Assembly (NCBI GenBank): GCA_963702475.1
Contig: CAVPCT010000005.1
Coordinates: 480,001-544,000 of the forward strand
Direction: 5' to 3'
DNA length: 64,000 bases
Origin: an uncultured Thermoleophilia bacterium
GTDB taxonomy: Bacteria; Actinomycetota; Thermoleophilia; UBA2241
The notes beneath the pieces were generated by a model that did no database searches, was not told where the DNA came from, and worked only from the letters and a program-made list of their open reading frames with translations. Of this stretch, positions 34,489-42,614 are shown piece by piece. The position numbers were made by a program, and so were the translations under genes. Every line of letters starts with the position of its first letter. Within the stretch, counting starts at the first letter, position 1.

Positions 34489-35085
34489 ATGGCGACGAAG
34501 ACTCCGGAGAAGGCGAGCGGGCTCACCGAGATACGCTGGCACGGCCGCGGCGGCCAGGGGGCCGTCACCGCGGCCAAGATGGTCGCCGAGCTGGCCCTCG
34601 GCGAGGGCAAGTACTTCCAGGCGTTCCCGGAGTACGGGCCCGAGCGCTCCGGCGCACCCATCGTGGCCTTCACGCGCGTGAGCGACGAGCCCATCCAGGT
34701 GTACGCCGGCGTCGAGCACCCGCAGATCGTCATCGTGCTGGACTCGTCACTTCTTGCCGTGGTGGACGTCTGCAAAGGCGCTCCCGACGACGCCATCGTG
34801 CTGGTCAACAGCGAGAAGGCGCCTGCCGAGCTGCGTAAGCAGTACGGCCTCGAAGGCCACCGTCTCTTCACCGTGGCGGCCACGCGCATCGCGCTCGAGA
34901 CCATCCGGCGGCCCATCCCCAACACACCTATGGTGGGGGCTCTCACGCGCATCACGGGGCTGTTCGCGGTGGACGACGTGGCGGAGTTCCTGGAGCACGA
35001 GTTCGGCAAGAAGTTCCCGCCCAAGGTCGTGGAAGGCAACATCAACGCGATCAGGCGCAGCTACGAGGAGGTCCAGGGCGAATGA
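34489..35085 (+). CDS. porC: Pyruvate/2-oxoacid:ferredoxin oxidoreductase gamma subunit
   Basis: EIRWHGRGGQGAVTA, FPEYGPERSGAP, IPNTPMVGA. Confidence 0.93.
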   Translation: MATKTPEKASGLTEIRWHGRGGQGAVTAAKMVAELALGEGKYFQAFPEYGPERSGAPIVAFTRVSDEPIQVYAGVEHPQIVIVLDSSLLAVVDVCKGAPDDAIVLVNSEKAPAELRKQYGLEGHRLFTVAATRIALETIRRPIPNTPMVGALTRITGLFAVDDVAEFLEHEFGKKFPPKVVEGNINAIRRSYEEVQGE

Positions 35086-35453
35086 CCGTGGAGAAGAAAG
35101 CCGGCGCCAAGCACCCGGCGCCGCTCAAGAAGCCCCGCGCCAGAAAGCCCAAGTGGGACATCAGCGACGTCGCCGAGTGGGGCCCCGACCGCCACGAGCT
35201 GGGCGCGACCATCGTCGAGGCCGGCAACTCGACCTTCAACGAGACCGGCGGCTGGCGCAGCCTGGTGCCGGAGATCGAGGTCGCCAAGTGCGATGGCTGC
35301 ATGTTGTGCTACTTCTACTGCCCCGACTCCTCGATCATCATCGAGGACGGCAAGGCGGTCGGCATCGACCTCGCCCACTGCAAGGGCTGCGGCATCTGCG
35401 CCAAGGAGTGCCCGCAGACCGCCATCGCCATGCTGATCGACGCCAAGGAGTGA
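35082..35453 (+). CDS. porD: 2-oxoacid:ferredoxin oxidoreductase delta subunit, 2x[4Fe-4S]
   Basis: TGGWR, CDGCMLCYFYCP, CKGCGICAKECP. Confidence 0.93.
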   Translation: MTVEKKAGAKHPAPLKKPRARKPKWDISDVAEWGPDRHELGATIVEAGNSTFNETGGWRSLVPEIEVAKCDGCMLCYFYCPDSSIIIEDGKAVGIDLAHCKGCGICAKECPQTAIAMLIDAKE

Positions 35454-35456
35454 CCT

Positions 35457-39438: not shown

Positions 39439-42400
39439 GTACCCGAACCAAAACGGCCGTGAAGGTCACCATAGATGGCCGCGAGCTCGGCGCCCGTGAG
39501 GGCGAGACCGTGCTCCAGGTCGCACGGCGCGAGGACATCGACATCCCCGCCCTGTGCCATCAGGAGGGCATGGATGCCTGGGGCGCCTGCCGCCTGTGCA
39601 TGGTCGAGGTCGAAGGCCTCGACAAGCTGCAGGCGGCCTGCACGACCTGGGTCACCGACGGCATGGTCGTGCAGACCGACACGGCCCGCGTGCGCGCCCG
39701 TCGCGAGAGCTACCTCGAGATGTACCTCTCGGACCACAACTCCTACTGCGAGGCGCCGTGCTCCCACGCGTGCCCCACGCACATCGACATCCCCGCCTAC
39801 ATGGCGGCGCTCGCCGGCGGCGACGCCGCCGGCGCGGCCGCCATCGTGCGCGAGGAGCTGCCGTTCCCCGGCATCCTTGGGCGCGTGTGCAACCGCTACT
39901 GCGAGCCGGTGTGCCGGCGCGCCGACGTGGACGAGCCCATCGCCATCTGCGCCCTGCACCGGGCAGCAGCCGACCACAGCGAGACGCGCCTGATCCCGGG
40001 CATGCCCAGCGGCCGGCGCGTCGCCGTCATCGGCGCCGGCCCAGCAGGACTGGCCGCGGCCTGGTTCCTCACGGAGCGCGGCCACAGCGTCACCATGTAC
40101 GACGCCAACCCCGAGCCCGGCGGCAGCCTGCGGTACAGCATCCCCGAGTTCCGCCTGCCCGCCAGGGTCGTGGAGAAGGAGCTCACGCCGCTGTGGGAGG
40201 CAGGCGTGCGCTTCGTCGGCGAGGCCGAGCTGGGCTACGAGGTCGACACCGACGGCCTGCTGGACGCCGGCTTCGACGCCATCGTGCTCGGTGTGGGCCG
40301 CTGGGAAGAGCCGCGGCACGTGCTGCCCGGCGACGAGGCGGCCCTCAAGGGCCTCGACCTGCTCAAGCGCGTACGCGAGGGCAGGGCCGTCAAGTTCACG
40401 CAGAAGGTCGTGGTGATCGGCGACGGCCTCACCGCCCTCGACGTGGCCCGCACAGCGCGCCGCAGGGGCGCCAAAGAAGTCGTCGTGATCTCGCCGAACC
40501 AGGCCGACGACATCCCGGCCGGTGCCCGCGACCTCAAGAACGCCCTCGAGGAGGGCGTGAAGTTCGAGTTCGGCGCCCTGGCCAAGAAGGTCAAAGCAAA
40601 GAGCGGCAAGGCGCAGGGCGTGGAGTGCGTGCGTCTGGCGACCGACAAGGGCCGCACGCACGAGGTGCGCGGCTCGCGCTTCGACGTGCCGGCCACCACC
40701 GTCGTGATGGCCACGGGCTACGCGCCGCGGCTCGGCGACAGCGCCGAGTACATCGCCGTGTCCGACGCCCGCCTGCAGGCCGACCCCTCCACCGGCCGCA
40801 CCGCCGATCCCGGCGTGTTCGCGGCCGGCGATGCCGTGGCGCGCACCGCTTCGGTCATCCACGCGGTGGCCGGCGGCAAGCGCGTGGCCCTGGCCATCGA
40901 CGCCTGGCTGCGCGGTGAGGACCTCGACGAGCTGGAGGCGCGGCTCACCGCTTTCAAGCAGCTGCCGTACCTCGAGCAGCTCAAGGCGGAGAAGGCGCTC
41001 GGCGACCTCGAGCTGCGTCTCGTCGAGCGCGACCCGGTGTGGCTCAAGATGGGCGCGGCGGCCGACCCGGCGCCCCGCGCCACCATGCCCAAGGTCGGCA
41101 GGCAGAAGCGTCTCACGGCCACCGACCTCGAGGTCGAGAAGGGCTACAGCCTGGCGGCCGCCCGCGCCGAGGCCATGCGCTGCCTGCAGTGCGAGTGCCC
41201 CAGCAACGGTGCCTGCGACCTGCAGAAGCTCGGCGTGCAGTACGACATCACCAGCAACGACCTGGTCGTGAAGGGCAATCTCGTGCGCATGGTCGAGGCC
41301 CAGTACGAGCACCCCTTCATCCGCCGCGACATGGAGCGCTGCATCGCCTGCGGGCGCTGCGTGCGCGTGTGCCGCGACGTGGCCGGCCCGGCCTGCTACG
41401 ACTTCACCGGCCGCGGCTTCATGATGAACGTCGACACGCCCTACGGGCAGGCCCTGCAGCTGGCCGACTGCATCTCGTGCGGTCGCTGCGTCACGAGCTG
41501 CCCCACCGGCGCCCTCACCTTCAACCAGCGCGAGCTGGCCGCCTTCCAGATCGACGAGAGCCGCTGCATCATGTGCCGCGAGTGCGTCGGCGTATGCCCG
41601 GTGGATGCCCTCAAGGAGACCAACCACTTCGAGGAGGCGCGCCGGCGGTGGCTCGAGCTCGTGACCAAGGGCAGCGGCCTGGCCGGCGGGCACCGCATGT
41701 GCGCCGGCTGCGGGGCGCCCATCGTGGTGCGCCAGGTGCTCATGGGCACCGACGACCCCGTGGTGGTCAGCGCCGCCACCGGCTGCCTCGAGGTGAGCAC
41801 CACCATCTACCCCTACACCTCGTGGAAGGGCAGCTACATCCACACCGCCTTCGAGAACGCGGCGGCCACGCTCTCCGGCGTGGAGACCGCATTCCGGGCG
41901 CTGAAGAAGAAGGGTCTCATCGAGGAGAACGTCAAGTTCATCGCCTTCGGCGGCGACGGCGGTACCTACGACATCGGCCTGCAGAGCCTCTCCGGCGCCA
42001 TGGAGCGCGGACACGACATGGTGTACGTGTGCTACGACAACGAGGCGTACATGAACACCGGGTTCCAGCGCTCCAGCGCGACGCCCCACGGGGCCTGGAC
42101 CACCACCAGCCCGATCGGCAAGGAGAGCTACGGCAAGGTCCAGAACCGCAAGGACCTCACCGAGATCATGGTCGCCCACGGCATCCCGTACGTGGCACAG
42201 GCCTCGCCGCACGACCCGCGCGACCTGGTGCGCAAGGCGGCCAAGGCGCTCGCCACCCCCGGCCCGGCGTTTCTCAACATCCTGGCGCCGTGCCCGCGCG
42301 GCTGGCGTTCGGACGGGGCCGAGACCATCGAGCTCGCGCGCGAGGCCGTGAACGCCTGCTACTGGCCGCTGTTCGAGGTCGTGGACGGCGAGTACAAGCT

Positions 42401-42614
42401 CACGTACCGGCCGCGTCGCAAACTGCCGCTCATCCCCTGGCTCAAGCGCCAGGGGCGCTTCGCCCACCTGTTCAAGCCGGGCAACGACGAGGCTCTCGAG
42501 CAGCTCGAGGCGTGGTCGGATCGTGAGTGGGCCAAGCTCCTGCGCAAGTGCGGCGAGCCCAGCGAGGCCGACTGGCAGGAGGAGCTGCAGGCCAACGGGT
42601 GCCTGCTGCGCTGA
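39435..42614 (+). CDS. Fusion: HydA/NuoG N-terminal Fe-S arm + GltD/NfnB-like flavodomain + ferredoxins + PFOR beta (TPP) subunit
   Basis: IPALC..GACRLC..AAC; GAGPAGL; CLQCEC; CIACGRCVRVC; CISCGRCVTSCP; CIMCRECVGVCP; then HRMCAGCG, TGCLEV, GDGG..DNEAYMNTG, APCP. One uninterrupted 1059-aa ORF. Confidence 0.92.
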   Translation: MSTRTKTAVKVTIDGRELGAREGETVLQVARREDIDIPALCHQEGMDAWGACRLCMVEVEGLDKLQAACTTWVTDGMVVQTDTARVRARRESYLEMYLSDHNSYCEAPCSHACPTHIDIPAYMAALAGGDAAGAAAIVREELPFPGILGRVCNRYCEPVCRRADVDEPIAICALHRAAADHSETRLIPGMPSGRRVAVIGAGPAGLAAAWFLTERGHSVTMYDANPEPGGSLRYSIPEFRLPARVVEKELTPLWEAGVRFVGEAELGYEVDTDGLLDAGFDAIVLGVGRWEEPRHVLPGDEAALKGLDLLKRVREGRAVKFTQKVVVIGDGLTALDVARTARRRGAKEVVVISPNQADDIPAGARDLKNALEEGVKFEFGALAKKVKAKSGKAQGVECVRLATDKGRTHEVRGSRFDVPATTVVMATGYAPRLGDSAEYIAVSDARLQADPSTGRTADPGVFAAGDAVARTASVIHAVAGGKRVALAIDAWLRGEDLDELEARLTAFKQLPYLEQLKAEKALGDLELRLVERDPVWLKMGAAADPAPRATMPKVGRQKRLTATDLEVEKGYSLAAARAEAMRCLQCECPSNGACDLQKLGVQYDITSNDLVVKGNLVRMVEAQYEHPFIRRDMERCIACGRCVRVCRDVAGPACYDFTGRGFMMNVDTPYGQALQLADCISCGRCVTSCPTGALTFNQRELAAFQIDESRCIMCRECVGVCPVDALKETNHFEEARRRWLELVTKGSGLAGGHRMCAGCGAPIVVRQVLMGTDDPVVVSAATGCLEVSTTIYPYTSWKGSYIHTAFENAAATLSGVETAFRALKKKGLIEENVKFIAFGGDGGTYDIGLQSLSGAMERGHDMVYVCYDNEAYMNTGFQRSSATPHGAWTTTSPIGKESYGKVQNRKDLTEIMVAHGIPYVAQASPHDPRDLVRKAAKALATPGPAFLNILAPCPRGWRSDGAETIELAREAVNACYWPLFEVVDGEYKLTYRPRRKLPLIPWLKRQGRFAHLFKPGNDEALEQLEAWSDREWAKLLRKCGEPSEADWQEELQANGCLLR

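Follow-up and report, generated by a model that had tools for sequence, protein, structure and literature searches.

The por-bfu operon and its fused beta subunit

The window analysed here is a 64,000-nucleotide stretch (C5:480001-544000) of contig C5 of a metagenome-assembled genome (MAG) of an uncultured, anaerobic Thermoleophilia bacterium (4.3 Mb in 9 contigs, completeness 93.8%, contamination 6.5%, G+C approximately 70%). On its plus strand, at 34483-42614, lies a six-gene operon that reads porC-porD-porA-bfuC-bfuB-bfuA::porB (Table 1). Genes for a 2-oxoacid:ferredoxin oxidoreductase (OFOR) are here combined with those for a Bfu-type core of the kind found in electron-bifurcating enzymes. 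The alpha, gamma and delta OFOR subunits are present, as is a beta subunit with a thiamine pyrophosphate (TPP) motif and a four-Cys cluster, the latter occurring only as a fused domain. A previous interpretation, made from the letters without database searches (the sequence-only reading), had described a por/Hyd-type operon with overlaps or tiny gaps. Open reading frame (ORF) calls and Pfam matches agree with this, all gene junctions being 4-nt overlaps or gaps of 1-3 nt.

Table 1. Position of the operon genes and their component features in the window, and the evidence for each.
Feature	Position (nt)	Strand	Evidence
porC, gamma subunit of OFOR, 200 aa	34483..35085	+	PF01558 E 3.4e-39; TIGR02175 PorC_KorC 202 bits vs cut-off 81
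porD, delta subunit, 123 aa, 2x CxxCxxCxxxCP	35082..35453	+	Fer4 families; TIGR02179 89 bits vs cut-off 60
porA, alpha subunit, 400 aa	35457..36659	+	POR_N E 6e-72; PFOR_II E 2e-28; PorA_Arch 483.5 bits, under cut-off 550
bfuC part 1, frame 1: NuoI-like Cys-rich N-terminal extension, CxxCxxCxxxCP	36661..36978	+	translation; profile match to NuoI chains
homopolymer C/G run with one extra base, frame 1 to frame 2	36976..36981	+	one-base gap in 6/6 aligned relatives
bfuC part 2, frame 2: NuoE/HydC-like thioredoxin-like [2Fe-2S] domain	36979..37516	+	PF01257 E 4.4e-45
bfuB, 641 aa	37513..39438	+	Pfam; full-length alignment to 7t2r_B, 811 bits
bfuB modules: N-terminal Trx-like [2Fe-2S]; NuoF-like FMN/NAD(H) core; SLBB; [4Fe-4S] domain; Cys/His metal site; C-terminal 2x[4Fe-4S]	37513..39438	+	Pfam and translation
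bfuA::porB, 1059 aa, GTG start	39435..42614	+	one ORF; Pfam domains
bfuA::porB, N-terminal [2Fe-2S] (C41, C52, C55, C69)	39435..39683	+	Fer2_4 aa 7-83, E 2e-20; Cys invariant in 14 sequences
bfuA::porB, inserted NfnL/GltD-like module, two clusters and FAD domain	39744..40877	+	Fer4_20 aa 104-183; Pyr_redox_2 aa 195-481
bfuA::porB, decayed NAD(P)H site: GDGLTALD (aa 329-336), SPNQ (aa 353-356)	40419..40502	+	alignment to five solved relatives
bfuA::porB, NuoG/HydA-type motifs C583/586/588/594, C636/639/642/646, C679/682/685/689 and third motif C711/714/717/721	41181..41615	+	Fer4_Nqo3/Fer4 aa 627-727; all invariant
bfuA::porB, PorB domain: TPP-binding GDG...N; C756, C759, C784, C953	41664..42614	+	TPP_enzyme_C aa 782-949, E 2.5e-21; Cys invariant

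The last gene encodes a 1059-residue protein in which the Pfam domains occur in the order given by the sequence-only reading: a HydA/NuoG-type arm, a flavodomain, ferredoxin motifs and the beta subunit of pyruvate:ferredoxin oxidoreductase (POR). No separate porB was found in the operon, leaving the fused domain as its sole beta subunit, and neither an H-cluster nor a molybdopterin family appeared among the 25 of 31 Pfam families shown. Residues 9-699 aligned to residues 4-676 of the C. saccharolyticus NfnA chain 9bov_A with 456 bits, and PorB stands where NfnA has its Fdh/NuoG-like domain, past NfnA residue 676. The PorB domain itself (aa 749-1029) matched the POR beta subunit 9bt4_C with 287 bits. 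The fusion has 32 predicted cluster-ligand Cys (33 with C654), and all of these, like the TPP motif, are invariant among 14 sequences that are 59-82% identical to the window.

Mis-assembly at the Fer4-PorB junction is contradicted by the database matches, since 107 of the best 120 clusters, drawn from numerous independent contigs, cover at least 95% of the fusion at 58-91% identity. Among species-representative genomes, 127 were found to hold relatives, and 80 of these were kept for locus comparison. Going by record titles, all 80 belong to uncultured Actinomycetota (Thermoleophilia, Gaiellales, 'Actinomycetes' and a single one under the label Coriobacteriia). All seven query pieces were present in 62/80 loci, and every one of the 62 retains the order and strand of the window; wherever a locus extended 5600 nt or more upstream, no piece was missing. 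The domain-architecture and synteny comparison thus found both the fusion and the six-gene order conserved. The fusion was recovered as a single high-scoring segment pair in 56/80 loci. Among the matches listed for 301 sampled genomes of the class, at least 43 genomes, from families f1 and f4, have a near-full-length copy in one frame. On these sequence comparisons the fusion is real and no artefact of assembly. A search of 1.84 billion representatives clustered at 50% identity returned one full-length fused representative (P0105) plus fragments, the other top matches spanning only aa ~8-730; the fusion is therefore the invention of one lineage. Because PorB exists here solely as the C-terminus of BfuA, and the fusion and gene order are conserved on many contigs, a single physical complex is strongly supported.

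The Bfu core, the flavodomain and BfuC

BfuB was placed by ranking bit scores against Protein Data Bank chains. Its residues 34-627 aligned end to end to eight solved Bfu-type B chains with 651-811 bits, including 7t2r_B (811 bits), 8a6t_B, 9bov_B, 9n5u_B and 7p5h_B. By comparison, NuoF, Nqo1 and FdsB chains matched the core (aa 131-563) only, with at most 404 bits. The NuoF-like core comprises Complex1_51K (E 5.5e-44), SLBB and NADH_4Fe-4S (site B1, E 2.9e-33), preceded by 2Fe-2S_thioredx (aa 31-109) and followed by Fer4 (aa 574-627). Three modules of BfuB are absent from non-bifurcating homologues, namely the Trx-like [2Fe-2S] at its N-terminus, the Cys/His metal site (B2) and the C-terminal 2x[4Fe-4S] (B3/B4); such homologues are described as being without sites B2-B5 (Schut 2022, PMC9304861). 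The motifs listed by the sequence-only reading can all be read in the translation (CAGTAC...GCHGFC, GAFM, PIDFESL, CMVD, H..RCPARVC and two C-terminal Cys motifs). Best BfuB matches per locus were 56-93% identical, with the extra modules conserved. Moreover, BfuC is a NuoE-like [2Fe-2S] subunit (PF01257), and BfuA combines an N-terminal [2Fe-2S] with NuoG/HydA-type [4Fe-4S] motifs (Fer2_4, Fer4_Nqo3). As far as sequence can tell, the locus has every feature by which a Bfu core is recognised.

The GltD/NfnB-type flavodomain proposed for BfuA is borne out by Fer4_20 and Pyr_redox_2, but a working NADP(H) site is not, a loss that the sequence-only reading did not mention. The domain aligned to the NfnA chains 9bov_A, 9n5u_A and 8oh5_C (238-270 bits) and to the NfnB/NfnL chains 4ylf_B and 5jca_L, presumably those of T. 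maritima NfnB and P. furiosus NfnL. These five solved NADPH-binding relatives (three NfnA chains, NfnB and NfnL) all carry G(G/A)GNTAMD and YRR(T/S), whereas the window has the divergent residues given in Table 1. Across 14 family members the signature positions vary freely and the YRR(T/S) position is unconserved; one member, P0052, lacks the third Gly of the motif. In 5/14 members (P0052, P0100, P0106, P0111 and P0112) the distal flavin GD motif is also lost, and part of the family may be losing the ability to bind FAD. Four of these five divergent members carry insertions of ~10-22 residues at the distal GD site, and in P0111 and P0112 the acidic residue that follows the first Rossmann strand is missing as well.

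The same genome contains a separate bfuC-bfuB-short nfnA cluster (C1:241483-246239) whose NfnA reads GGGFTAMD...YRRS and terminates just past the third Cys motif. The Por-linked copy looks like a derivative of such a short NfnA that no longer uses NADPH. In true NfnABC the NfnL-like FAD module is where NADPH enters. Because the module has lost its nucleotide signature here, NADP(H) is probably not a substrate, and the flavodomain is probably a side branch or relic.

The HydC-like gene listed by the sequence-only reading is not a single open frame in the window, as one extra base near 36979 splits bfuC. The frame-1 ORF begins at 36661, one base past porA, and after its Cys motif continues as Arg-rich out-of-frame sequence. 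Frame 2 is open from 36788, its earliest start codon being at 37037. Short-read contigs of two public runs (X1 and X3) from two studies do not have the base at 36979, and one of them, 337 nt long, has no other difference from the window; no short-read contig covers the entire 6.3-kb stretch. Among related loci holding both parts of bfuC, 60/65 have them in one frame, a stricter regular-expression search yielded 48 single bfuC ORFs, and similar breaks were seen in five related MAG loci. Because the relatives and the short-read contigs are without the extra base, and because it falls in a homopolymer, we read the break as an assembly indel and not as a dead gene. A bfuB paralogue of the same assembly (C3:612851-614672) is likewise in two overlapping pieces in different frames, probably owing to another single-base indel, which suggests that the assembly carries homopolymer errors.

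The N-terminal extension of BfuC was not named by the sequence-only reading. Its four CxxCxxCxxxCP Cys are invariant in 29 orthologues and two further Cys are nearly so, with an additional Cys pair absent in 7/29. Pfam gave weak Fer4 matches only. A profile built from 20 orthologous extensions matched NuoI (TYKY) chains (E 4.6e-11), the aligned region being a strand plus the Cys motif. A tblastn search of the source genome found the extension in the Por-linked operon only, and the NuoI-like extension thus occurs only with this copy of bfuC. The best 120 database matches to it were proteins of 175-319 aa, mostly ~270-290 aa, and 119/120 carry PF01257. A protein-atlas search with the extension had a top score of 0.84, below the 0.9 lead level, and returned generic Fer4 clusters only. 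AlphaFold2 prediction of the intact BfuC of a relative (locus L015, 29 sequences) gave mostly high confidence for the NuoE-like part (means of 61-90 over 10-residue blocks) and a per-residue confidence (pLDDT) of 31-51 for the extension. Complex prediction of the extension with PorA, Fer4-PorB and PorD scored 0.11 against a mark of 0.32, a result that weighs neither for nor against binding. The NuoI-like extension would supply at least one further cluster to the complex.

Proposed electron path and alternative readings

The electron path, coupling, substrate and direction that we infer for this complex are as follows. The products of the six genes would assemble into a single soluble complex with many cofactors, a version of the predicted Por-Bfu class in which subunits are fused. 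Its TPP-dependent site, made up of PorA, PorC, PorD and the PorB domain, would oxidatively decarboxylate a 2-oxoacid, most likely pyruvate, to acyl-CoA and CO2. Because the NfnA-type BfuA has PorB as its C-terminus, electrons would exit through the BfuA clusters, passing from the PorB [4Fe-4S] via the three adjacent cluster motifs to the N-terminal [2Fe-2S], all within one polypeptide. They would then enter the flavin-cluster core of BfuB and BfuC, where reduction of NAD+ at FMN and of ferredoxin (Fd) at the C-terminal clusters of BfuB would be coupled. With pyruvate the reaction would be 2 pyruvate + 2 CoA + NAD+ + 2 Fd(ox) -> 2 acetyl-CoA + 2 CO2 + NADH + 2 Fd(red), and the opposite direction is possible. 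That electrons from a 2-oxoacid, probably pyruvate, pass along the fused Fe-S chain of one complex to a BfuBC core, which reduces NAD+ jointly with ferredoxin, is the interpretation we favour, with moderate confidence. A precedent is the tungstopterin-dependent Wor-Bfu enzyme, which reduces NAD+ and ferredoxin only jointly despite its low-potential donor; the same behaviour has been proposed for Por-Bfu (PMC9304861).

A more elaborate version is tentative, and we are rather inclined to doubt it than to accept it in full. In C. saccharolyticus NfnA, the Fdh-like branch with clusters A2-A4-A5 is described as a non-functional side branch, a dead-end remnant (PMC11829005). The window may encode a structurally new kind of Bfu enzyme: its third substrate would be handled by a catalytic subunit that is part of the BfuA polypeptide, the inherited NADPH arm would have been retired and the dead-end A2-A4-A5 arm reused as a live wire to the TPP site. 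The NuoI-like module of BfuC would aid the wiring, and pyruvate would be oxidised only with NAD+ and ferredoxin reduced together 1:1.

Several observations weigh against the favoured interpretation. The NCBIfam models for pyruvate-specific subunits all scored below their equivalog cut-offs (PorA_Arch 483.5 vs 550, PorB PRK11865 364 vs 405, PorC 207.5 vs 270 and PorD 92.5 vs 120); they outrank the Vor, oxalate and Pad models. Because the Por subunits stay below these cut-offs, the identity of the 2-oxoacid is uncertain. A donor near -500 mV makes both reductions downhill, such that bifurcation is not thermodynamically required (PMC9304861, Table 1). PorD is retained, and electrons could exit through it to free ferredoxin as in a four-subunit POR. 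The fused protein of the window has kept the first FAD motif (GAGPAG) and the distal AGDA intact, and a flavin role is possible. As assembled, bfuC is frameshifted. No published purification or assay of any Por-Bfu member was found. Lastly, six genomes of the same genus (completeness ~77-100%) gave only the NfnA-type paralogue with the fusion query, and the operon is therefore accessory. The sequence-only reading had proposed one obligate complex; the physical link is upheld by the covalent attachment of PorB and the conserved gene order, and the obligate bifurcation and the use of pyruvate are what we infer.

An unlikely alternative is a non-bifurcating, NAD+-dependent 2-oxoacid oxidoreductase that has no need of ferredoxin, with BfuB and BfuC acting as an NADH-forming diaphorase for the TPP-derived electrons in the manner of PadEFGHI. 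PadEFGHI, the phenylglyoxylate:NAD+ oxidoreductase, has an OFOR core, a beta subunit with an extra N-terminal ferredoxin part and a GltD-like flavoprotein, and reduces pyridine nucleotide. Unlike the window it has no NuoE/NuoF-type subunits, and its flavoprotein is a separate subunit. The NCBIfam models PadE, PadF, PadG and PadI do match the four Por parts with 62-302 bits, and an OFOR cluster with a GltD-like gene is present in the same genome (C6:55271-59570). However, these matches lie far under the cut-offs of 150-700 bits (PadE 142/300, PadF 62/150, PadG 302/700, PadI 224/700) and do not place the Por parts in the Pad group. NAD+ reduction would also be exergonic without coupling at the donor potential (Table 1 of PMC9304861), but the characterised Wor-Bfu is strictly coupled in spite of its low-potential donor (PMC9304861), and BfuB retains, conserved across the locus set, every module that NuoF-type non-bifurcating proteins lack.

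Two further readings are each improbable. According to the first, the flavodomain still binds a pyridine nucleotide and the enzyme is a four-substrate hybrid of an Nfn-type transhydrogenase and a pyruvate:NAD(P)+ oxidoreductase. In addition to the two intact flavin motifs, the G-x-G-x-x-A pattern persists as GDGLTA and the Cys of both Fer4_20 clusters are kept. However, YRR(T/S), found in 5/5 solved NADPH-binding relatives, is replaced by SPNQ in the window and unconserved in the 14 members, P0052 is without the third Gly and five members are without the distal GD motif. The same genome also has a separate NfnA-type gene with GGGFTAMD...YRRS, adjoining its own bfuC and bfuB. The second is that this is an ordinary POR on a tether, in which PorD reduces free ferredoxin, the Bfu module draws on that pool and the fusion does no more than keep the modules together or ensure their stoichiometric assembly. 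PorD is indeed conserved with both clusters, 8/8 of its Cys being invariant in 14 orthologues. With the NADPH site decayed, however, the Bfu module would then have no third substrate of its own, and the Cys motif C711-C721, immediately N-terminal to PorB, is invariant, as would be expected of a wire and not of a linker.

That the operon is inactive in this organism through a true frameshift of bfuC is very improbable: the window as assembled does hold no single bfuC ORF, but the extra base is missing from the contigs of both studies (one otherwise identical over 337 nt), it lies in a C/G homopolymer run, a bfuB paralogue of the assembly is frame-split as well, five related MAG loci have comparable breaks, and the remaining operon genes are all intact.

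Genomic context and relation to known systems

Upstream of porC lie dnaX (31321-33252), a ybaB-like ORF (33264-33590) and recR (33770-34486), with a 4-nt overlap between the recR stop and the start of porC. This arrangement is retained in closer relatives and not in more distant ones. Downstream, convergent minus-strand genes (42884-48926) encode a PaaK-like AMP-binding ligase (42884-44185) and the ATPases, permeases and binding protein of a Liv-type branched-chain amino-acid ABC transporter. The ligase was considered as a clue to the substrate and dropped, as it adjoins the operon in 0/80 related loci. A scan of 31000-43200 returned no promoter-like sites, and five terminator-like sites against 3.4 expected, none at the operon end; both scans are uninformative at 70% G+C.

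Elsewhere in the source genome there are about eight additional bfuC-bfuB pairs (contigs C1, C3, C5 and C6), one of them in the short-nfnA cluster on C1, an unusually rich Bfu-type set. The second OFOR cluster, on C6, comprises porC, a GltD-like gene with an intact GGGNTAMD...YRRT, porA and porB in a Pad-like layout. An orphan 485-aa Fer4 and PorB paralogue (C3:31763-32905; L003:1360-2817) is 62-64% identical to aa 679-1049 of the fusion. It has a cupin gene upstream and no porA, porC or porD nearby, and similar matches (~63-66%) were found in several genomes of the same genus. This paralogue might provide the same PorACD with an alternative, free beta subunit.

The sequence-only reading held that POR-associated Bfu enzymes had been predicted and knew of none that was characterised. 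The prediction is indeed in print: Por-Bfu was proposed in 2022 as a seven-subunit complex (A-G) in which the four Por subunits are separate and BfuA, of Type 2, lacks A3 and A5 (PMC9304861). Its predicted hosts are mainly Dehalococcoidia (Dehalococcoides mccartyi 195) and syntrophic Proteobacteria, and the view of POR-BfuABC as one enzyme rests there on gene adjacency and similar expression levels (PMC9304861). What is new is only the fused NfnA-type architecture. The window shares with the published class the combination of por and bfuABC in one cluster, pyruvate as the proposed third substrate and the full set of predicted cofactor sites in BfuBC. It differs in that PorB is fused to an NfnA-type (Type 1-like) BfuA with a flavodomain and three Cys motifs, that BfuC has a NuoI-like extension and that the host belongs to Actinomycetota. 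The main text of PMC9304861 mentions neither Actinobacteria nor 'fused' or 'fusion'.

In BfuA the locus resembles the NfnABC/StnABC (Nfn-Bfu) transhydrogenases, which have the same succession of an N-terminal [2Fe-2S], an inserted NfnL-like FAD module and NuoG-type clusters (456, 403 and 377 bits for aa 9-699), and whose B chains align to BfuB over its full length with 703-723 bits. Two of these structures, 9N5U (named NfnA/NfnB) and 8OH5, we take to be NfnABC/StnABC of T. sibiricus and S. ovata, respectively. Unlike NfnABC, the window has lost the NADPH signature, has PorB in place of the Fdh/NuoG-like C-terminus, and has gained the Por alpha, gamma and delta subunits and the BfuC extension. 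The comparison with C. saccharolyticus NfnABC draws on the structures 9BOV and 9BP5 (PMC11829005). Judging from its genes, the locus fits neither the published subunit pattern of Por-Bfu nor the NADPH criterion of Nfn-Bfu.

WorABCSL of Acetomicrobium mobile is a functional precedent, its donor lying below the ferredoxin potential and NAD+ and ferredoxin being reduced only together. As described, its tungstopterin catalytic subunits are on separate polypeptides linked by the WorS nanowire, and it has no TPP, no fusion and no flavodomain (PMC9304861, PMC12318220). With the four-subunit POR (9bt4) the window shares the order porC-porD-porA and a PorB with an intact TPP motif and cluster Cys. Unlike that enzyme, the operon encodes no free-standing beta subunit, and porA is separated from the beta domain by bfuC and bfuB. 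A PFOR review of Nov 2026 distinguishes one-, two-, four- and five-subunit forms, and contains none of 'Bfu', 'NuoF' and 'glutamate synthase' (PMC13768988). Searches on POR bifurcation in Thermoleophilia, and on NfnABC with pyruvate and PorB, found no published description of this architecture.

The covalent link between POR and Bfu settles their association for this lineage, which is common among MAGs. Moreover, an NfnABC paralogue with a near-canonical NADPH motif and a Por-linked copy without the NADPH signature are both present in one genome, a natural experiment on the swapping of the third substrate. An enzyme assay would address the question, raised in PMC9304861, of why pyruvate, a donor of such low potential, should be coupled to bifurcation at all. 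If the proposed coupling is true, the complex would provide widespread anaerobic soil and sediment Actinomycetota with a direct route from pyruvate to NADH that keeps half of the low-potential electrons.

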